Of a stretch of 58,156 nucleotides of DNA, positions 1-6,792 are shown in pieces. The notes below the pieces were generated by a model, which saw only the letters and a program-made list of their open reading frames with translations, did no database searches and had not been told where the DNA came from. The DNA comes from a virus. Its lineage: Duplodnaviria; Caudoviricetes. The stretch is from the IMG/VR virus record IMGVR_UViG_3300021976_000015, positions 1 through 58,156 of that record; one strand, written 5' to 3'. Position numbers and translations under genes: made by a program. The first letter of the stretch is position 1. The number at the start of each line of letters is the position of its first letter.

Positions 1-222
1 GAACGCGACTACTTCCGAGTCAACCTCGACCCGGACGCCCACCGTGACGTACTGCCAGGCCTTCTCGTGGAATGCCCTGACGGTGATTCCGTCGTACGTG
101 TCGAAATCGCCTGGTGACGTGTCGTTGTCCTCGGACATGGTCCATTCCAGGATCACGCTCGGAACGTTGGTGTTTTCACTCTCGGTGTCAACGACCACTC
201 GGCCGTCCTCGGGCAGGAACAT
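1..222 (-). CDS. hypothetical acidic protein, 3' end beyond window edge (cargo downstream of hammerhead 1)
   Basis: ATG at 222 preceded by GGAGGTCACC. The frame MFLPEDGRVVVDTESENTNVPSVILEWTMSEDNDTSPGDFDTYDG... stays open to base 1. Confidence 0.75.
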   Translation of the reverse strand, partial: MFLPEDGRVVVDTESENTNVPSVILEWTMSEDNDTSPGDFDTYDGITVRAFHEKAWQYVTVGVRVEVDSEVVAF

Positions 223-268
223 GGTGACCTCCATGTAGCGGTGGTAAGGGGTCTGAGAGGCACGCTGT

Positions 269-324
269 GGACTCGTCAGCGGGTGACTGACACCCGGACA
301 CCCCCGGCACGGGGTGTTTCGTCC
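269..324 (-). ncRNA. type II hammerhead ribozyme HH1
   Basis: Minus strand reads GGAC GAAAC ACCCC-GUGCCG-GGGGU GUC^ CGGGUG-UCAGU-CACCCG CUGACGA GUCC. Catalytic core complete, stems I/II/III paired. Predicted cut between 297 and 296. Confidence 0.92.
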
Positions 325-851
325 TAGACGGAGTAGACGACATACCGACCGTCGGGAAGTTCAAACTTCTCGTGGTGGTGCGGTTGGTTGTAATCGAACA
401 GGTCCGAACGGAATTCGGTCTCATCTACCTCGCCGTCGTCACCAAGTGCACCCTGATCGATCATGAAATCGGCGAATGCGTCTTCCGAGTCGTACACGCC
501 CTGGTACTGGTTGTTGAGGAAGTCGGTGAACCCCTTCACCAGGTCAGGGTTACCGCTCGTGCCGAATTCGTACGCGGCCTTGAGGTACTCCGGCTTCCAC
601 GAAGACGGGGACCCGTAGTAGTCCTCACCAGGTAGCGGAATCAGGGCGTTCACGTAGTCCAGGATTTGGTCGCGGTCATCTCCCGCTTGCCATTCCTCTA
701 CCTCCGTGTCAGACCATTCCACTGAGTACTCATCGAACAACGCGGCAACGGCATTGATCCATGCCGTCACGGTGTCGTCGTCTGTGGTGTCCTCGGGGTG
801 TAGTACCCGGAAGCGGGTAAGCGCGTCCGGATGAACGACGGGATCGAACAT
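324..851 (-). CDS. ArdA-like anti-restriction (DNA-mimic) protein
   Basis: Very acidic 175 aa protein. The C-terminal YQGVYDSEDAFADFMID..G...D..EF..DLF...G..V pattern resembles the ArdA C-terminal domains. Strong SD. The TAG overlaps the GGAC of HH1. Confidence 0.6.
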   Translation of the reverse strand: MFDPVVHPDALTRFRVLHPEDTTDDDTVTAWINAVAALFDEYSVEWSDTEVEEWQAGDDRDQILDYVNALIPLPGEDYYGSPSSWKPEYLKAAYEFGTSGNPDLVKGFTDFLNNQYQGVYDSEDAFADFMIDQGALGDDGEVDETEFRSDLFDYNQPHHHEKFELPDGRYVVYSV

Positions 852-874
852 GGTTGACCTCCGTATAGAAATGG

Positions 875-930
875 GGACTCATCAGGGCACTCACCTAAGT
901 GCCGACGGGACATCAGGTCCCGTTTCGTCC
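875..930 (-). ncRNA. type II hammerhead ribozyme HH2
   Basis: GGAC GAAAC GGGAC-CUGAU-GUCCC GUC^ GGCAC-UUAGGUGA-GUGCC CUGAUGA GUCC. Cut 904/903. Confidence 0.92.
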
Positions 931-932
931 TG

Positions 933-1247
933 TCAGGAGTTGTCGTAATAGCGACCGACAACGACATGGTCGCTATCGGTGCCGCCGTACTCATCGCGGA
1001 CGTATCGAATCAGTACCGCTGAGAATGCGGAATCGGCGGAGTATCCGACCCACCCGGTCAGGGAGGGTTGCTGTTCGGTGACGCGTTCGAACTCGCCCAT
1101 GTCGTACGTCCAGTCGTCGTACCGGAAGAACGATGCGTCTTCCTGTCCACCATTGGCACTCAGGTAGGCGAACTCTTCGCGCTCTGTCTCCGAAAGGTCC
1201 GACCATGTCAAGACCTCACGCTCTACGTTGTCGCTTGTGATTGTCAT
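933..1247 (-). CDS. hypothetical acidic phage protein
   Basis: ATG at 1247 after GGAGGTCAACCCCG. MTITSDNVERE...GWVGYSADSAFSAVLIRY. The longer start in the ORF track runs through HH3 and is unlikely. Confidence 0.75.
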   Translation of the reverse strand: MTITSDNVEREVLTWSDLSETEREEFAYLSANGGQEDASFFRYDDWTYDMGEFERVTEQQPSLTGWVGYSADSAFSAVLIRYVRDEYGGTDSDHVVVGRYYDNS

Positions 1248-1269
1248 CGGGGTTGACCTCCAACTAGGG

Positions 1270-1322
1270 GGACTCATCAGGACCGGCATGACCGATCGAC
1301 GCGGCATGGCCGCGTTTCGTCC
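1270..1322 (-). ncRNA. type II hammerhead ribozyme HH3
   Basis: GGAC GAAAC GCGGC-CAU-GCCGC GUC^ GAUCGG-UCAUG-CCGGUC CUGAUGA GUCC, with one G-U pair in stem I. Cut 1298/1297. Confidence 0.92.
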
Positions 1323-1483
1323 TAGGTAGTTTTCATATCGGCGAAATGGTCGGCGAGGAAGAACCCGTCATGTGGAGTCCATCCACACCAACACTCGGCA
1401 GGGATACCGCGAGCGAGGGTGGCGGGATTGACCTCGTGAATGCCAGAGCACAACCCACAGTCGTGCTCTGTGGTCTCAGGCAT
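1322..1483 (-). CDS. small Cys/His-rich (possible Zn-binding) protein
   Basis: MPETTEHDCGLC...ECWCGW...DH. Overlaps the upstream stop. The TAG overlaps the GGAC of HH3. Confidence 0.6.
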   Translation of the reverse strand: MPETTEHDCGLCSGIHEVNPATLARGIPAECWCGWTPHDGFFLADHFADMKTT

Positions 1484-1724
1484 CCTTGCGCGCTCGGTGC
1501 TTGCCACCCTTGCTAGCCCTCTGAGTGCCACCCTCAGCCCTCTTGCGACTGGCGGGGGTACCCGACATCCGGTAGGCGAGGTAGGCAGCGTCGGTCTGGC
1601 CGCTAGGGGTGTCCACGTAGCGGATCGAACGGAACCAATCGAGCACGGACATGGCGAACCTTTCGGGATGGTGAGGCGGAGTGACGTTCGGGATGTTCGG
1701 GTCAGCGGTCAGCGTCGATCTCAT
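1476..1724 (-). CDS. hypothetical protein
   Basis: Fills the gap between neighbours with overlapping ends. Start uncertain. Confidence 0.45.
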   Translation of the reverse strand: MRSTLTADPNIPNVTPPHHPERFAMSVLDWFRSIRYVDTPSGQTDAAYLAYRMSGTPASRKRAEGGTQRASKGGKHRARKDA

Positions 1725-2121
1725 CGATATTGGTCAGGGTGATGTAGTACGAATAGCCCTGCCGCGTGACGGACACCAGGAACGTGTCGCCGTGCAGTTC
1801 CACAAGGTCACCATTCGCGACATTCGCGGTTGGGGTCGCCTTGTCAGGATCGGGTGAGTCCGAAAGCACCGAGGACATCTCGAATGCGTACGCGTAGGGA
1901 CCAGACACGATCGGTCCACCCTGGACACGTCGCGAGTAACCAGTGGAATCGATGTACCCCACCATGTGGCGCCCATAGGCACCCGCGACAGTGAGGTACA
2001 TGGTTCCCTCACCATCCCAATGCCCACGGTCGCGGGAAGTGTTGTCGTCCCAATAGCGGGACCGATTGAGAGGCACCCGCACACGGGTTGGGATGCGCAG
2101 TTCGGTAGTCGTCTCGGGCAT
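1702..2121 (-). CDS. hypothetical protein
   Basis: ATG at 2121 after GGAGGTCACC. MPETTTELRIPTRVRVP... Confidence 0.75.
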   Translation of the reverse strand: MPETTTELRIPTRVRVPLNRSRYWDDNTSRDRGHWDGEGTMYLTVAGAYGRHMVGYIDSTGYSRRVQGGPIVSGPYAYAFEMSSVLSDSPDPDKATPTANVANGDLVELHGDTFLVSVTRQGYSYYITLTNIDEIDADR

Positions 2122-2149
2122 GGTGACCTCCGGGTAGAGCTTCTGATTA

Positions 2150-2205
2150 GGACTCGTCAGCACGGCTACATACCGTGGACGGGGCGAGTGCACCCCGTTT
2201 CGTCC
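2150..2205 (-). ncRNA. type II hammerhead ribozyme HH4
   Basis: GGAC GAAAC GGGG-UGCACUCG-CCCC GUC^ CACGG-UAUGUAG-CCGUG CUGACGA GUCC. Cut 2178/2177. Confidence 0.9.
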
Positions 2206-2206
2206 G

Positions 2207-2659
2207 CTACTCGGTGTCGTCGTCGGTCTCTTCCTCCTCGTCGTCCTCTTCCTCCTCGTCTTCGTTCTCCAGGTCTTTGTAGTCCTGCTCTGCCTGGCCA
2301 AGAAGCTGCCCTGTCAGGTCATCGGCCGCGTAGAAGAGAACCGTTCCGACACCATCCGTGGTGAGTTCGGGTGGGTCTTCCATCTGACCTTCGTAGTGGT
2401 ACAGGGCCAGGTCTACGAAGACCTGCCAGCGCTCGTGTGTGGGAATCGGGACGGCACTGTCGGCGATTTCGGACGACTCGATTTCCTTGGTGTCGGTCCG
2501 CTCTGCCACTGCCGAAACCACGCGGTCACGGATGTCCAGAAGGAATTCCGCGCCGGGGGACGTCATACTCTCCGGGTACGACGCACCGTCAAGCATTCGG
2601 TAGAGGTCATCGGCGTCGTACTTGGAGATTTCAGCGGTGTTGTACATGGCGTAAGACAT
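2207..2659 (-). CDS. Ocr (T7 gp0.3)-like DNA-mimic anti-restriction protein
   Basis: 150 aa, extremely acidic. EIADSAVPIPTHERWQVF resembles the Ocr motif AADNAVPHYYADIFSV, and it has a poly-D/E tail as Ocr does. Confidence 0.55.
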   Translation of the reverse strand: MSYAMYNTAEISKYDADDLYRMLDGASYPESMTSPGAEFLLDIRDRVVSAVAERTDTKEIESSEIADSAVPIPTHERWQVFVDLALYHYEGQMEDPPELTTDGVGTVLFYAADDLTGQLLGQAEQDYKDLENEDEEEEDDEEEETDDDTE

Positions 2660-2683
2660 GGGGTTGTGACCTCCGTATAGGGG

Positions 2684-2737
2684 GGACTCATCAGGCCACG
2701 CGTTACGTGGCGACACCCGCGAAGGGGTGTTTCGTCC
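2684..2737 (-). ncRNA. type II hammerhead ribozyme HH5
   Basis: GGAC GAAAC ACCC-CUUCGC-GGGU GUC^ GCCACG-UAACG-CGUGGC CUGAUGA GUCC. Cut 2712/2711. Confidence 0.92.
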
Positions 2738-2739
2738 TG

Positions 2740-3012
2740 TCAGTAGTAGTTATCCGGCGGGTAGTGGCCAGGTCCGTAGCAGAGGGACGCGGACAATCCG
2801 TGCTCGCACGTCGGGTAGAGGTACTCGGACAGTTCCTGGTGATCCGGGTAGAGATCCGACACCGAATCGATGACGTGACCGGGACGATCGTTCAGGAACG
2901 CGATGGCCATCGTGTCCGCGTTCGGACCTTCGAAGATGACCTTGTACGACCCCTCACTCAGGGGTGAGGTGACGGACAGGATGACGGGCGTGTGCGTGGT
3001 GGTATCGGGCAT
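2740..3012 (-). CDS. hypothetical protein with C-terminal CEHG...C..P.H motif
   Basis: ATG at 3012 after GGAGGTCACACC. Ends YPTCEHGLSASLCYGPGHYPPD. Confidence 0.75.
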   Translation of the reverse strand: MPDTTTHTPVILSVTSPLSEGSYKVIFEGPNADTMAIAFLNDRPGHVIDSVSDLYPDHQELSEYLYPTCEHGLSASLCYGPGHYPPDNYY

Positions 3013-3053
3013 GGTGTGACCTCCCATAGAGCGGACTGGTGAAGCGGACTTGT

Positions 3054-3105
3054 GGACTCGTCAGGGTTGGAGATACCAACCGACGCGCCTAAGCGCGTTT
3101 CGTCC
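3054..3105 (-). ncRNA. type II hammerhead ribozyme HH6
   Basis: GGAC GAAAC GCGC-UUAG-GCGC GUC^ GGUUGG-UAUCU-CCAACC CUGACGA GUCC. Cut 3082/3081. Confidence 0.92.
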
Positions 3106-3302
3106 TAGGCAGGGATGACATCCATGTAATTGGGTGCCACCTTCAGGGTCCGTTTGGACCGATCCATCATCACGTGCACGTACTTGGTTCCGAGCTTGAC
3201 GACGACGCCAAACCGGTCACCTCGCATCCATGCATCGAGACCGGGGTGCAACTCCACCCTTTCCCCCACGGTGTACTGGTTTGTCTTTTTGCGCGTGGTC
3301 AT
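3105..3302 (-). CDS. small basic SH3-like beta-barrel protein
   Basis: MTTRKKTNQYTVGERVELHP...GVVVKLGTKYVHVMMD. The TAG overlaps the GGAC of HH6. The ATGA overlaps the upstream gene. Confidence 0.65.
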   Translation of the reverse strand: MTTRKKTNQYTVGERVELHPGLDAWMRGDRFGVVVKLGTKYVHVMMDRSKRTLKVAPNYMDVIPA

Positions 3303-3562
3303 TTCAAATCCCTTTCTTTGGGTGTGTGGCCGATGAGAACGTCCGGGCAGTACCCGAGTGCGGTGTGGAAGACGAAGCGCAAGCCGTGCTCCCGGTCCCA
3401 CACGTACCCCTGGAGAACACTCCAGTCCGCCATCTCGTTCGGTGTGGTCTCTACCAGGCCAGAGCAGATCTCCTGAGAGACAGCCGCGCTCGGTGAGGTA
3501 GGCGCGTTGTAATCGGTATGGGGCACGGTCACCACAAGGGCCACCGCGATCAGGGCATGCAA
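3299..3562 (-). CDS. small secreted/membrane protein
   Basis: TTG start after GGAAGG. Hydrophobic N-terminus ALIAVALVV. Confidence 0.5.
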   Translation of the reverse strand: MHALIAVALVVTVPHTDYNAPTSPSAAVSQEICSGLVETTPNEMADWSVLQGYVWDREHGLRFVFHTALGYCPDVLIGHTPKERDLK

Positions 3563-3633
3563 GGGGTACCTTCCGACTAGGGGGCAGGGGCTTCAGGGCC
3601 GCTACGGCCATCTGAGGGGGTTGTGAGGTGAAC

Positions 3634-3825
3634 TCAGGCGAGACGAGGAGTTGGGTTGCACGCGGGCACTCGGGTCTCGCTGTAGAAGTTCGTGAGAGTG
3701 AGCCATCCACTCGCCGAGATGTTGTCCGCCACGTGGGTGGCCAGCTTCTCATCGGTGTACGTCTCGGTGACGTCCCGACCCTCGTCGTCGCGGTAGTCGA
3801 CAAAGAACGTGGTGTATTCGGGCAT
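3634..3825 (-). CDS. hypothetical protein
   Basis: ATG at 3825 after GGAGGTCACC. MPEYTTFFVDYRDDEGRDVTE... Confidence 0.7.
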   Translation of the reverse strand: MPEYTTFFVDYRDDEGRDVTETYTDEKLATHVADNISASGWLTLTNFYSETRVPACNPTPRLA

Positions 3826-3856
3826 GGTGACCTCCCATAGAGCGGACTGGTAAGAC

Positions 3857-3910
3857 GGACTCATCAGGACACCCCATAGGTGCCGACACCCCAGGTGGGG
3901 TGTTTCGTCC
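3857..3910 (-). ncRNA. type II hammerhead ribozyme HH7
   Basis: GGAC GAAAC ACCCC-ACCU-GGGGU GUC^ GGCACC-UAUGG-GGUGUC CUGAUGA GUCC. Cut 3885/3884. The upstream TAA abuts GGAC. Confidence 0.92.
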
Positions 3911-4279
3911 TTACTCCTCGGCGTCGGACAGTTCGTACTCGGCTTCCGAGAGAATGTCCGCGAATGGTGTGAGAGCGACGTGATCCGCATTCGCCTCGTC
4001 ATCGGGGTCTTCCACCTCATCGGAGGCGTAGTAGGAGAGGAATCCGGCCGCGTCACGAAGCGCGCGATCGTGATCCACGTACGGGAGGTTGAGGGTGTGG
4101 TCTTTGTCGCCCACCCAGGACACGATCGGCTCACCCTCGGAACGGGTCAGGGTGACGCGGTAGGCCGCGTAGTGGTCACTCCAGTAGCCATCGGTGACGT
4201 GCCGGTCAAGGAACACACCGAGAATCAGGCCATCGTCCAGGTGGGCGATACGGCCATCGCGGGTGGTGGTGACGTTCAT
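3911..4279 (-). CDS. hypothetical acidic protein
   Basis: ATG at 4279 after GGAGGTCAACACC. MNVTTTRDGRIAHLDD..., with an acidic C-terminus. Confidence 0.75.
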   Translation of the reverse strand: MNVTTTRDGRIAHLDDGLILGVFLDRHVTDGYWSDHYAAYRVTLTRSEGEPIVSWVGDKDHTLNLPYVDHDRALRDAAGFLSYYASDEVEDPDDEANADHVALTPFADILSEAEYELSDAEE

Positions 4280-4301
4280 GGTGTTGACCTCCAGGTAGAA
4301 C

Positions 4302-4357
4302 GGACTCATCAGGCCGCGTATGACGCGACGACGCGGGAATGCACCCGCGTTTCGTCC
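4302..4357 (-). ncRNA. type II hammerhead ribozyme HH8
   Basis: GGAC GAAAC GCGGG-UGCAUU-CCCGC GUC^ GUCGCG-UCAUA-CGCGGC CUGAUGA GUCC. Cut 4330/4329. Confidence 0.92.
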
Positions 4358-4367
4358 TAGGGGTAGA

Positions 4368-4541
4368 TCAGACCGGAACGTTGGTAGAGATGAGGGAAGG
4401 GGATGCCGCGCAACGAAGTGCACGAGCAAGTACCCGTTGTGCCTTCTCGGCGGTGAGGAACCAACCGGAGTAGACGGTGCGTCCACCAACGCAGTCGGTC
4501 CAGCGGACGTAGTACGCGCTCTTGGGGCGGGTTGCGTTCAT
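4368..4541 (-). CDS. small hypothetical protein (57 aa), first gene of the ribozyme operon
   Basis: GGAGGTCACCGCACC-ATG. MNATRPKSAYYVRWTDCVGGRTVYSGWFLTAEKAQRVL... Below the ORF-track length cutoff. Confidence 0.65.
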   Translation of the reverse strand: MNATRPKSAYYVRWTDCVGGRTVYSGWFLTAEKAQRVLARALRCAASPSLISTNVPV

Positions 4542-4587
4542 GGTGCGGTGACCTCCAACTAACCCCCGACGTCTGTGTCGGGGAAAG

Positions 4588-4635
4588 TGCCCGTGTGCGG
4601 ATTCGAACCGCTACAAGCCAACTTCACTCACGGGC
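4588..4635 (-). ncRNA. tRNA-like mini-structure (acceptor stem plus T-arm only)
   Basis: GCCCGUG-(17 nt)-GCGG UUCGAAU CCGC-A-CACGGGC-A: a 7-bp acceptor-like stem and a canonical T-loop, with no D or anticodon arm. Confidence 0.6.
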
Positions 4636-5030
4636 ATGACCTACTTACCAGTGCAAGGGATGCTGCCCTTTCGCCTCGCTAGGAATGCAGGTCATCACGG
4701 CAAGGTCGCACTGTTAGGGATTCGGCTACGCGCTTGGTCATGCCTGCCTACGTAAGAGAGCCGTTCTCACCACTTCCTAGTGGCCATGTTGTTGGATACG
4801 CCGCGAGTAAGTCACCAGGGCTTAGGACTGACAGTCCATCGTGAGCCGAGCTGGGTGGCCGCGCGTATGAGGTAAGCAAGTCAGGGGTCTAGGCATTTTT
4901 CGGCGTTAGCACCCGTCGCGATCGATCACCGCCACTCGCGTGGCCTTACGGGGGTTCCGGCGCTTGACTTGCTCTGTAGTTGTGGCCCCCATGTTCGGGA
5001 GCGGGTGGTGCAAGACCCAAGCTACAGCAC
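4636..5030 (-). ncRNA. candidate large structured non-coding RNA / leader
   Basis: No convincing ORF. Nested helices at 4649-56/4706-13, 4674-79/4700-05, 4633-41/4736-44 and 4875-83/4965-73, plus a GNRA hairpin at 4931-4944. Confidence 0.45.
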
Positions 5031-5450
5031 TAGCGCTGTGTAAGAAGGCATATGACATCACACGTTCGGGTGAATGTAACCAGGACACAAGGGACGCGAA
5101 CGGACATCTTGTGCGTGGAGTGGCAGGTGGAGAGGAAGGGAACACGGCTTCTCAGCTATGGCCACAGCTACCCAAAGACACCCCCTAAACGATCACTCCA
5201 AGCGATCACTCAGAGGCCCATACGTGCAGGTCACGGTGTGTTCTGCACCTTGGTTTTCGGGACGGTAGGCAGTGCACCCCTAGATTCCGCGACCAAGACA
5301 CCCCATCTCTACCTGGTTGGAAGGGGGGTAGGCGGGTTAGAACGTCGCGACCGGGGTCCCCTTTCCACACCAGTGGAAGTAGAGGAGATACCAGGTAGCC
5401 GGTAGACCCCAGTTGGATTTTCGCGACGTGGGGTTCCCCATCCGTAGTAC

Positions 5451-5545
5451 AGGGGAGAGAGGGAGAGAGGAGAGGGGGAGGGAAGAGACAGGGTAGGTAG
5501 GGGGTAGAGGTAGAGGGTAGGTAGAACGAAGGTTTGTAGGTAGAT
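5451..5545 (+). repeat. polypurine tract and GGTAG repeats
   Basis: 38 consecutive purines (5451-5488) followed by GGTAGGTAGGGGGTAGAGGTAGAGGGTAGGTAG. Confidence 0.8.
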
Positions 5546-5658
5546 TGGCTACGTATGAAGGATGGTTAGGTGTTTGCAGGGGTGCTTAGAATTGGATAGG
5601 GCTCTGACCTGCACAAAGACAAGGGCTTTGGTTTTAGGGTGTAACCAGGAGGGCGAAA

Positions 5659-6792
5659 ATGGCATTTTCAGCAATGGAAATTTTAGACCAAACAATGACC
5701 GATATGCAGGATTCTTTTGTCCAGAGTGGACAACTTTCGCAACAGTCCAGGGTGATCAACAAGCATGGGACGGCACGGATCACCAGCGGGAAGAAACCCA
5801 AGACGGTAAGTAAGGCCATCCACCCGTGGAGCAAGATCGAAGCCGTCTACGTGGAAGGTCTTCCAGAGACCCACAAAGATGGAAGAACGATCCTCAACTA
5901 CCCGAGTCACCAGGCGGTAGCGGACTTGTTCGCGATCAGTGTCGCGACAGTCCGGCAGAGGGCAGCACGAGAACAGTGGACAACCAGGCGAGAACAACAT
6001 CAGGCACAACTTGCCGCGCAGAGGCGACAGGAACGTCATCGGGAACTTGCTCAGTACGCCAGTGACATCGATGAGAAAGCCGTACATCTCAGTCGTACGG
6101 GGCTTTCCATCGTTCAGGCACGCATCTTGGAGCTTGCCGAGAAAGCCAAGGATCGCGAGATCTGGAAGGAAGACAAGCAACTCTGTGAAGCAAGCGGTAC
6201 ACGGTTCATCCGACCCGAACCCAAGCCGGTTGACGCGAGGGAACTTGACCAACTTGCCGCAGCCGCAACCAAGTGGCATGCGTTGGGTAGACAGGGTTTA
6301 GGCGATGACGTCACGAAGCTTCAGATAACCGGTCCAGACGGTGGACCCGTCCAAACCATTCATGCGCACATGGTCAAGGAAGACCCAGAACGCTTGTCAA
6401 AGGTCCTCGATGCCCTGAAGAGAAGCAACGTCCTCACTGCCCTCATGGGTATGGAGGAACCGATAGAAGCCGAACTTGTGGACGAGATCCCTTACACAGC
6501 GGCAATCGAAGTCATTCCCGACCCATACGAGCACATGACCCAAGAGAACGGGTACGACATCCAATCGGCAGATGCGGGGGTAGGTAGAGGAGAAGATCAG
6601 GGGGTAGGTAGAGGGGATGTCATTCTAGAAACCCCCTCAGATCAACCGAGAGCAATCAAGCACGTCATCCCACCCATTGACCCCAACCCCCTGGGGTTAA
6701 GTCCTCAGAATCAAGCTGAGAGGGATGTGGGGGTAGATACGGGGGTTAGAAGGGTGACCCCAACAAGACGCACGAGGAAGACGCGGGAGTAA
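5659..6792 (+). CDS. terS: terminase small subunit (putative)
   Basis: N-terminal HTH-like segment (SHQAVADLFAISVATVRQRAAREQW), a helical middle, and the typical TerS LQITGPDGGPVQT motif. Start uncertain. Confidence 0.65.
   Translation: MAFSAMEILDQTMTDMQDSFVQSGQLSQQSRVINKHGTARITSGKKPKTVSKAIHPWSKIEAVYVEGLPETHKDGRTILNYPSHQAVADLFAISVATVRQRAAREQWTTRREQHQAQLAAQRRQERHRELAQYASDIDEKAVHLSRTGLSIVQARILELAEKAKDREIWKEDKQLCEASGTRFIRPEPKPVDARELDQLAAAATKWHALGRQGLGDDVTKLQITGPDGGPVQTIHAHMVKEDPERLSKVLDALKRSNVLTALMGMEEPIEAELVDEIPYTAAIEVIPDPYEHMTQENGYDIQSADAGVGRGEDQGVGRGDVILETPSDQPRAIKHVIPPIDPNPLGLSPQNQAERDVGVDTGVRRVTPTRRTRKTRE

Follow-up and report, generated by a model that had tools for sequence, protein, structure and literature searches.

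Eight type II hammerhead motifs at the cistron boundaries of a phage operon and their probable role in dividing its transcript

The minus strand of the phage record analysed here (the window, 58,156 nt in full) carries an operon of about 13 small genes, mostly encoding acidic products without an assigned function, and eight short elements which resemble hammerhead ribozymes lie between its cistrons. What are these elements, and what would a phage gain from carrying so many of them in one transcript? The record is a linear fragment (57% complete according to CheckV) with terminase, portal, capsid, tape measure, primase and helicase genes, and its source is a soil siphovirus-like phage, a distant relative of Gordonia phages. 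Features of the operon are listed in Table 1; the array may continue past the left edge of the window. We consider it likely that all eight work as type II hammerheads and divide the polycistronic minus-strand transcript, which would uncouple the stability and translation of the resulting units.

Table 1 Genes, hammerhead elements (HH) and multi-ORF units of the operon, from the first cistron leftwards. The first number of each predicted cut is the H17 position.
Feature	Position	Strand	Predicted cut	R1 model (bits)	Rfam Hammerhead_II (bits)	Remarks
g1	4368..4541	-				first cistron, 57 aa, basic, pI 10.2; SD GGAGGTCA; no hammerhead upstream; no Pfam or PHROG match
HH8	4302..4357	-	4330/4329	71.2	26.2	upstream gene stop TGA (4370-4368) 10 nt away
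g2	3911..4279	-				122 aa, acidic, pI 4.2; only gene of 445-nt unit; no family match (Pfam, PHROG)
HH7	3857..3910	-	3885/3884	67.1	31.5	g2 stop TAA directly before GGAC
803-nt unit	3105..3825	-				about three ORFs (g3, g4, g5)
g3	3634-3825	-				63 aa
g4	3299-3562	-				87 aa, TTG start, weak SD; least certain
g5	3105-3302	-				65 aa; phrog_5546 (unknown function), E 3.7e-19
HH6	3054..3105	-	3082/3081	66.6	23.6	G of g5 stop TAG common to GGAC
g6	2740..3012	-				90 aa, acidic; only gene of 370-nt unit
HH5	2684..2737	-	2712/2711	67.4	27.9	g6 stop TGA 2 nt upstream
g7	2207..2659	-				150 aa, very acidic, pI 4.05, poly-D/E tail; only gene of 534-nt unit; phrog_4239 (unknown function), E 3.8e-15
HH4	2150..2205	-	2178/2177	63		g7 stop TAG 1 nt upstream
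880-nt unit	1322..2121	-				about three ORFs (g8, g9, g10)
g8	1702-2121	-				139 aa
g9	1476-1652	-				58 aa
g10	1322-1531 or shorter start	-				up to 69 aa
HH3	1270..1322	-	1298/1297	68.4	27.3	g10 stop TAG overlaps GGAC
g11	933..1247	-				104 aa, acidic; only gene of 394-nt unit
HH2	875..930	-	904/903	68.7		g11 stop TGA 2 nt upstream
g12	324..851	-				175 aa, acidic, pI 4.05; only gene of 607-nt unit; orphan
HH1	269..324	-	297/296	66	23.1	g12 stop TAG overlaps GGAC
g13	1..222	-				start of further acidic gene, runs off left edge

The elements have the form GGAC-GAAAC-(hairpin)-GUC-(hairpin)-CUGA(U/C)GA-GUCC. A search of both strands of the record with the exact pattern GGACGAAAC-N8-30-GTC-N8-30-CTGAYGAGTCC returned eight matches, all on the minus strand and at the very positions given by the initial annotation, while neither the plus strand nor 100 dinucleotide-preserving shuffles gave a match. 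A looser core search (CGAAA...TH...CTGANGA) and a stem-checking detector found the identical eight and no others in the window, and the detector found nothing in 3.2 Mb of reversed sequence. The hammerhead core consists of C3-U4-G5-A6-N7-G8-A9, G12-A13-A14, the A15.1-U16.1 pair and H17, which is not G. This definition is also summarised in PMC3088659. All eight copies carry CUGA(U/C)GA, GAA, the A...U pair and C17; the core was unchanged across copies, as first described, with 13 of 13 core positions kept in each and 22 invariant alignment columns, and the cut sites predicted earlier agree with the computed H17 positions in every case.

Stems I and III vary between copies yet stay paired. All 127 scored stem cells held standard pairs, 10 of the 16 pairs in the alignment of the eight copies had changed on both sides, and a covariation score as high as that observed occurred in none of 500 shuffles; sliding the partner strand by 1–3 columns left pairing at only 30–50%. 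Because stem I contains G-U and U-G pairs, the structure is readable on the minus strand only, and since the core is kept in every copy and the stems remain paired through two-sided changes, we agree with the initial annotation, which had made each of these points, that selection acts on the RNA fold. Stem II is invariant within the window (GGAC/GUCC, with G10.1-C11.1 present, 8/8) and covaries in the wider family, where 170 of 181 distinct elements, counted without imposing any stem II requirement, form all four pairs, and compensated variants occur among the relatives. Three covariation-supported helices surround the core, in the order stem II 5' strand, GAAA, stem III hairpin, UH, stem I hairpin, CUGANGA and stem II 3' strand. 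In all eight copies stems I and III are capped by loops and stem II opens to the flanks, which is the type II topology assigned originally. By core and topology, the eight elements are type II hammerhead motifs with a complete catalytic core.

It is scarcely credible, given these data, that the elements are no ribozymes but pairs of hairpins between genes, such as terminators, attenuators or REP-like repeats, with a chance resemblance to hammerheads. G+C-rich hairpins are frequent between genes and no copy passes an Rfam gathering threshold; against this stand the eight observed elements compared with none in shuffled or reversed sequence, the wholly invariant core flanked by covarying stems, and the lack of a U-tract after the hairpins on the minus strand. 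At the elements, a terminator scan reported nothing on the coding strand; its only match there was on the plus strand, within HH1.

We folded the elements with a nearest-neighbour model, in which the non-canonical core pairs are not represented. In isolation, MFE and centroid structures were both the three-way junction in 8/8 copies. With 30–45 nt of flanking sequence the MFE retained stems I and III in six of the eight, and the 4-bp stem II in just one, HH5, the sole copy with the full fold; competing structures appeared for HH6 and HH7.

Reportedly, the majority of type II hammerheads rely on a pseudoknot between loop I and the 3' tail for fast cleavage at cellular Mg2+. Following the RF02276 and Perreault type II consensus, we looked for a helix of at least 4 bp between loop I and the nucleotides immediately 3' of stem II, and found none beyond the shuffled control in the eight copies and 202 relatives: such a helix occurred in 1/8 copies compared with 33% of shuffled flanks, and in 23% of the relatives compared with 21% after shuffling. 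The Rfam hammerhead models, named as a check in the initial annotation, gave a divided answer. Hammerhead_II was the nearest family for six copies (E 0.0018–0.29), but none of the eight reached its gathering score (RF02276, 37 bits). The remaining two were HH2, which had just a weak, shifted Hammerhead_3 match (18 bits), and HH4, without an Rfam match at E ≤ 10. A model built from the eight copies (R1) scored them at 63–71 bits, the next best match in 58 kb reaching at most 14. The copies share with RF02276 the catalytic core, the circular permutation and the GUC cleavage triplet, and differ from it in their scores (23–31.5 bits versus 37) and in the missing pseudoknot.

In the relatives, position −1 is A and position +1 mostly A; stem I has 6 bp, and loop I is 5–6 nt long, with U first and in most cases G last. 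A(+1) is found in only two of the eight copies, compared with 144 of the 202 relatives, and in HH4 the A(−1) conserved in the others is replaced by C. A more far-reaching proposal, which we regard as rather doubtful, is that the array is an instance of a distinct and abundant type II subclass, invisible to standard annotation. Its marks would be A(−1), stems I and II of 6 and 4 bp, a U...G loop I and the lack of a pseudoknot; its 5' strand would be fused to the upstream stop codon, and folding and cleavage would be coupled to translation. A ribosome terminating at that stop would sit over GGACGAAAC and reach into stem III, and would couple upstream translation mechanically to ribozyme folding and cleavage; if so, the downstream message would be cut and released depending on translation of the upstream gene, and not constitutively.

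The placement of the elements bears on their role. In seven copies the upstream stop codon overlaps GGAC by 1 nt or precedes it by 0–2 nt, the exception being HH8, whose likely upstream gene (ATG 4541) stops 10 nt before the element. An ATG lies 22–46 nt past the end of every copy, with GGAGGTCA before it (8/8). Both features had been recognised at the outset, and so had the unit lengths of 607, 394, 880, 534, 370, 803 and 445 nt, which we obtained again. The description as a gene-by-gene array was borne out in part: the elements do stand at cistron boundaries on the coding strand, but two of the seven units (HH7-HH6 and HH4-HH3) hold about three ORFs each, which departs from a strict gene-by-gene order. 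The same stop/start layout recurs in many other phage contigs. Across 119 other IMG/VR loci, a frame of at least 40 codons ended between −2 and +1 nt of stem II for 57% of 203 hammerheads, compared with 2.6% of 4060 random same-strand positions, and an SD, a start and at least 40 codons followed within 120 nt in 169 of the 203. Every copy lay on one strand in all 38 multi-copy loci. Hammerhead placement relative to genes is non-random.

Hammerheads cleave themselves 3' of H17 in an Mg2+-dependent reaction, which leaves a 2',3'-cyclic phosphate and a 5'-OH. If the elements divide the transcript, as we favour, each would fold while being transcribed and cut itself after GUC, giving seven or more internal units of 370–880 nt with one to three cistrons each. 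The sequence fixes these ends directly: the 5'-OH of a unit would fall on the first base of the 6-bp stem I hairpin, and a strong GGAGGTCA ribosome site would follow 8–36 nt past that hairpin. At its other end, the stop codon would be followed by the G+C-rich 6–8-bp stem III hairpin and, one base beyond, a 2',3'-cyclic phosphate. We infer that the benefit would be uncoupled stability and translation of the units, whose ends would be protected and which would be insulated from the sequence next to them. In synthetic insulators of the RiboJ type, a self-cleaving hammerhead before the RBS removes upstream RNA and leaves a 5'-OH and a hairpin, which makes expression independent of upstream context. 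Those insulators are engineered single parts, made of a satellite RNA hammerhead and an added hairpin; the array would work alike in principle, but it is natural and repeated, and each of its elements would in addition close the unit before it at the 3' end. No run among the sequencing runs on record as RNA that were searched for the array sequence contained it.

That the copies cleave in vivo is probable by analogy with related elements elsewhere. The triple arrays of prophages cleave in vitro, one of them in E. coli as well (PMC3088659), and a cyPhyRNA-seq study showed cleavage in vivo and in vitro for type II hammerheads at three Desulfovibrio vulgaris loci close to phage-like genes (PMC8782182). 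The latter stand next to hypothetical as well as phage-like genes, with about 300 nt between two of the elements, but are three loci in a bacterial chromosome rather than an eight-member array, and are likened here by their description (PMC8782182).

Active ribozymes could serve another end, such as timed down-regulation, differential decay of early transcripts, or re-joining of ends into circular or spliced RNAs by the ribozyme itself or a host RtcB-type ligase; we hold this whole set, re-joining included, to be unlikely. Stem II is identical in all eight copies while stems I and III differ, and because stem II is shared and the stem I and III hairpins are self-contained, a 3' half-ribozyme could pair with the 5' half of its own unit. 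After cleavage the halves would be joined by only 4 bp, as the sequence dictates. Perreault et al. considered spliced or circular products possible but could not detect them, with the data unshown there (PMC3088659). Neighbouring copies differ in stem II elsewhere, as in locus L121 with six stem II types among nine copies, so cross-compatibility is not general, and the strong SD after every cut fits translation of linear units.

Another possibility, to our minds quite improbable, is that hammerhead and SD mainly form a cassette boundary which travels with small accessory genes, the conserved core of ~20 nt providing microhomology for gene shuffling between phages and cleavage being secondary or neutral. 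The flanked genes are indeed orphans or unknown PHROGs and differ from array to array; g12, for instance, found itself and one weak match only in a search of 1.84 billion representatives. This hammerhead subtype occurs in viral contigs of 44–66% G+C and in genomes of many phyla, HH5 and HH7 are 82% alike, and a 35-nt 5'-UTR module follows both HH6 and HH7 with 91% identity. Relatives identified by terminase or protease also lack the elements: none was present in five distant relatives in culture or in five IMG/VR records whose terminase is related. The lineage therefore does not conserve the array, a point which also tells against the reading favoured here. Yet recombination sites require no intact catalytic core, and here all 13 core positions are kept in 8/8 copies and the stems stay paired through two-sided changes, a pattern which indicates selection on the RNA fold; strand and stop/start placement are strict.

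The arrangement has precedents. Perreault et al. (2011) described several prophage hammerheads flanking genes or short gene blocks and proposed a role in mRNA processing (PMC3088659), an account restated in reviews (PMC6155905, PMC6765202). With eight coding-strand copies between 13 ORFs of phage DNA, the present array belongs with these clustered phage hammerheads. Like them it keeps to one strand, flanks small phage genes that are not conserved, singly or in short blocks, and may process a polycistronic transcript. The triple arrangements are those of Clostridium scindens, Azorhizobium caulinodans and Agrobacterium tumefaciens; there are three copies per tested array, although larger ones may stand in Figure 3 or the supplements, compared with eight in 4.1 kb here (PMC3088659). 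Here every copy is type II, stem II is the same 4-bp helix throughout and the pseudoknot is missing; the copies are known from sequence, whereas cleavage was tested for the arrays of Perreault et al. The A. tumefaciens hammerheads flank the antirestriction gene ardA (PMC3088659), in contrast to the small acidic proteins without assigned function encoded here; g12 gave a weak, sub-threshold structural lead to ArdA, without support from sequence comparison. The view of the initial annotation that such a gene-by-gene array was undescribed fails in view of the arrays of 2011, of whose prophage arrangement the present one is a large example; other IMG/VR contigs carry arrays of 6–9 hammerheads as well.

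The left end of IMG/VR record IMGVR_UViG_3300021976_000015 carries eight hammerhead elements on the minus strand (HH1 to HH8, numbered from the left; see table). The pattern GGACGAAAC-N8-30-GTC-N8-30-CTGAYGAGTCC matched exactly at these eight positions, with no match on the plus strand or in 100 shuffles. A looser core search and a separate detector, which requires the core, a stem II, and stems I and III that close directly at the junction, both returned the same eight and no others in the window, and the detector gave no match in 3.2 Mb of reversed sequence. The eight-element array reported in the initial annotation is therefore confirmed as an observation. Of its interpretation, hammerhead identity, strand, cut sites and unit sizes (the lengths of RNA predicted between neighbouring cuts) were upheld, but a strict gene-by-gene layout and novelty were not.

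Hammerhead elements and other features of the minus-strand operon and its leader (H17, base before the predicted cut; units run from each cut to the next cut on the left)
Feature	Coordinates	H17	Unit (nt)	Remarks
HH1	269-324	297		Upstream stop shares one base with GGAC (TAGGAC)
HH2	875-930	904	607	Upstream stop 1-2 nt before GGAC
HH3	1270-1322	1298	394	Upstream stop shares one base with GGAC (TAGGAC)
HH4	2150-2205	2178	880	Upstream stop 1-2 nt before GGAC
HH5	2684-2737	2712	534	Upstream stop 1-2 nt before GGAC
HH6	3054-3105	3082	370	Upstream stop shares one base with GGAC (TAGGAC)
HH7	3857-3910	3885	803	Upstream TAA abuts GGAC
HH8	4302-4357	4330	445	Stop of g1 10 nt upstream
g1 (first operon ORF)	4368-4541			ATG at 4541
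g12	324-851			175 aa, pI 4.05
Differences in poly-D/E tail of g7	2225-2251			Seen in soil-run contigs
5'-UTR module after HH6	3016-3050			35 nt
5'-UTR module after HH7	3827-3861			35 nt
tRNA-like minihelix	4588-4635			Within leader of ~1.1 kb, 5' of first cistron
Minihelix acceptor-like stem	4635-4629 with 4595-4589			Perfect 7 bp
Minihelix T-arm-like sequence	4611-4597			GCGG-UUCGAAU-CCGC

The alignment of the eight copies bears out an invariant core with stems that differ and stay paired. Its 22 invariant columns are the strands of stem II, GAAAC, GUC and CUGA-GA (N7 being U or C), and all 127 of the cells scored on the named structure are standard pairs, with changes on both sides in 6/6 stem I pairs and 4/6 stem III pairs. 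The covariation score was reached by none of 500 shuffles, and pairing fell to 30-50% once the 3' partner was displaced by 1-3 columns. As stem I contains both G-U and U-G pairs, the fold is specific to the minus strand. In isolation, every element gave a minimum free energy (MFE) structure identical to the centroid and to the three-way junction, with seven pairs in stem I in five copies, while a covariance model of the eight, run with filters off, scored them at 63-71 bits against 14 for the next-best site on either strand of the 58 kb. It is very improbable that the elements are hairpins other than ribozymes.

The elements are of type II, as the initial annotation had proposed: the order is stem II 5' strand, GAAA, capped stem III, U-H17, capped stem I, CUGANGA and stem II 3' strand, with both an A15.1-U16.1 and a G10.1-C11.1 pair. 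Rfam agreed only in part, since Hammerhead_II was the best family for six copies but no copy, and nothing else in the window, reached the gathering threshold (23-31.5 bits for these six, against 37); HH2 was assigned, weakly, to type III alone and HH4 to no family. This shortfall is due to the Rfam/Perreault consensus, which contains a pseudoknot pairing loop I with the 3' tail, and not to absence of the motif itself. When this pseudoknot, or one with the 5' flank, was sought in the eight copies and in 202 related hammerheads from IMG/VR loci L009-L127, pairing was no better than with shuffled flanks. All eight copies share one stem II sequence; elsewhere it was paired at all four positions in 170 of 181 distinct elements found without requiring it, including the compensated variants GGUC/GACC, GAGC/GCUC and GAUC/GAUC.

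The 202 relatives have further features in common. An A lies directly 5' of stem II (-1) in 194 of them, including 59 of the 66 that have no adjacent stop codon, and an A directly 3' of stem II (+1) in 144. Loop I is mostly 5-6 nt long, begins with U in 175/176 and usually ends with G, and stem I was scored at 6 bp in 198/203, six being the maximum of the measure, so that longer stems are possible. We infer that these hammerheads form a subclass in which a different tertiary contact replaces the pseudoknot.

The cut sites and unit lengths obtained from the H17 positions are those predicted initially, and the placement of stop codons at GGAC in seven copies, with HH8 as the exception, was verified copy by copy. 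Every copy is followed by GGAGGTCA and then an ATG, 22-46 nt past the end of the element. Five units hold single genes, in keeping with a gene-by-gene array, whereas two hold blocks of about three ORFs, in which the internal genes are preceded by weaker ribosome sites or have start codons that overlap a stop. Judging from this layout, the array divides five single genes and two blocks of about three ORFs.

Such an arrangement would work by co-transcriptional folding followed by self-cleavage after GUC, freeing units with two defined ends: a 5' end at the first hairpin base, bearing a 5'-OH, and a 3' end formed by a stable hairpin plus one base bearing a cyclic phosphate. Since each cut would fall 3' of a stop codon, no non-stop message would result. 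RNase E and RNase J, which depend on a 5'-monophosphate or on single strands, act poorly on such ends, as do 3' exonucleases that require a single-stranded tail. A standard 5' leader ahead of the ribosome binding site makes translation independent of upstream sequence in synthetic ribozyme insulators, and the units of the window may be alike in this respect. We consider it probable, from the analysis as a whole, that the hammerheads of the window actively cleave and have a processing role, and are less confident of the specific benefit (end protection and context-independent translation). Counted against active cleavage are the absence from these copies of the pseudoknot known from the type II consensus, the departure of HH4 from A(-1), and the MFE folds with flanks, in which alternative pairings outcompete the weak 4-bp stem II in 7/8 copies and competing helices arise for HH6 and HH7.

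The initial annotation knew of no such array, but the central idea is prior art, being present in Perreault et al. 2011 and in later reviews. Perreault et al. (PMC3088659) describe the discovery of natural type II hammerheads and three triple arrangements that cleave completely during in vitro transcription, of which that of A. tumefaciens also cleaves in vivo, in E. coli. They considered that the products might be spliced or circular, yet detected none of this kind; that the elements of the window cleave in the service of circularisation, or of decay, is unlikely. De la Pena et al. 2017 (PMC6155905) and Weinberg et al. 2019 (PMC6765202) repeat the point made by Perreault et al. and treat the biological role as an open question, and Olzog et al. 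2021 (PMC8782182) report in vivo cleavage of three type II hammerheads that lie close to phage-like genes. Our search of the open-access literature found neither arrays of more than three, although Figure 3 or the supplements of PMC3088659 may show larger ones, nor a paper on hammerheads in actinobacteriophages. The array is thus a large example of a kind already known, and what is particular to it is its size and regularity, together with the subclass features, the subclass possibly being present already in that figure or the supplements of PMC3088659. With cleavage and processing as the preferred reading, such a dense array, with at least seven internal units per transcript, would allow cleavage, half-life and translation to be compared copy by copy, making it a good test bed for the open question of hammerhead role; a new mechanism is not established.

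The record is linear (58,156 b, CheckV completeness estimate 57%) and encodes a large terminase, portal, maturation protease, major head protein, tape measure, primase and DnaB-type helicase. Proteases of the Gordonia phage genera Chidieberevirus and Bendigovirus (genomes of 83-92 kb) share ~57% identity with that of the record, and the source is most likely an uncultured soil siphovirus-like phage with an actinobacterial host. Near-identical DNA to positions 1-5200 occurs in four soil-metagenome runs from two studies; all the runs matched were of DNA, none of RNA. Their contigs differ from the window by one A>G at 4186 and by small indels at 2225-2228 and 3014, at low depth, with no variants within any hammerhead. 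At the poly-D/E tail of g7 they show indels and alternative sequence, and several loose contig ends pass into unrelated sequence; these differences are probably low-complexity repeats common to other organisms and not phage variation.

The operon extends from the ATG at 4541 to the left edge of the record and comprises ~13 small ORFs. In the frames called, third-position G+C is 0.63-0.81, and in 10/13 the second-position value is 0.34-0.49; g1, g9 and g10, which are short and basic or uncertain, have 0.56-0.59. All eight genes directly after a ribozyme encode acidic proteins (pI 4.05-4.9). No Pfam family matched ten operon proteins at E<=0.01, and at E<=10 there was only noise; two proteins matched PHROGs, both of unknown function. 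A structural search with g7 gave no usable lead. For g12 we found no sequence relative in the PDB and, among 1.84 billion representatives, only itself and one weak repeat-like match. An ArdA-like fold for g12 (TM 0.44, ESM Atlas) fell below the tool's bar and had no sequence support, and is not claimed; the resemblance is mentioned only because, according to PMC3088659, the ardA gene of A. tumefaciens and Legionella is found behind hammerheads. Scans of positions 1-5800 gave no sigma-70 promoters and four terminator-like sites against 3.5 expected; such scans are uninformative if, as is likely, the host is actinobacterial. ARAGORN called no tRNA or tmRNA. The leader contains a tRNA-like minihelix with only ~17 nt in place of the D and anticodon arms, followed by a hairpin and the Shine-Dalgarno (SD) sequence of g1. 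It was called neither by ARAGORN nor by Rfam at E<=10. Candidate explanations are a processing signal of RNase P/Z type, the remnant of an attP site, and chance.

Parts of the array resemble each other. The 35-nt 5'-UTR modules after HH6 and HH7 are 91% identical, HH5 and HH7 are 82% alike over 55 nt, and the proteins behind HH7, HH6 and HH4 all start with MP(E/D)xTT. These likenesses suggest growth of the array by duplication or recombination of ribozyme-leader modules. It is doubtful, somewhat more so than a role in decay or circularisation, that the elements are cassette-boundary modules; processing by cleavage remains the favoured reading.

Close relatives of the operon were not found in IMG/VR with g7 and g12 as queries, and a megablast of positions 1-6000 against cultured phages gave no match. 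Among related phages, hammerheads were present in 0/5 of the records searched from terminase relatives in IMG/VR (at most 55% identity, mostly short fragments) and in 0/5 cultured Gordonia/Brevibacterium phages related by capsid protease. The same pattern was found in at least 119 other IMG/VR stretches, each entered through at least one GGAC/GUCC copy, a count that may include duplicates, as loci L019 and L103 look like one array. By model or detector, 38 of the 119 loci listed contain at least two copies, all copies of a locus lying on the same strand, and nine contain five or more, the largest among them being L121 (9), L112 and L083 (7), and L052 and L091 (6); many uncultured phages therefore share the layout, with as many as nine copies among the loci listed. 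Units of the multi-copy arrays measure 239-1,979 nt. A long open frame ends within -2 to +1 nt of stem II in 57% of 203 copies, against 2.6% of random same-strand positions, so adjacency of ribozyme start and upstream stop codon far exceeds chance among the surveyed copies, and 169/203 copies in the loci listed have an SD, start codon and ORF downstream. At gathering threshold, Rfam detected one of 67 detector-found copies from 12 array loci, and routine annotation thus under-reports such arrays. Genome G003 (125,690 b, classed linear; its right end is L009) was matched nine times by the model, always on the minus strand, with three matches within the first 1.2 kb and six within the last 4.5 kb; these would be one nine-member array split by assembly if the genome is circularly permuted.

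GTDB species genomes contain the pattern as well, in 72 stretches spread over many phyla. Two cultured actinomycetes, Phycicoccus jejuensis NRRL B-24460 (L159) and Streptomyces iakyrus NRRL ISP-5482 (L167), could serve as laboratory systems in which to study what such arrays do; each carries three same-strand copies of the same subtype, in loci spanning 2.2-2.3 kb.
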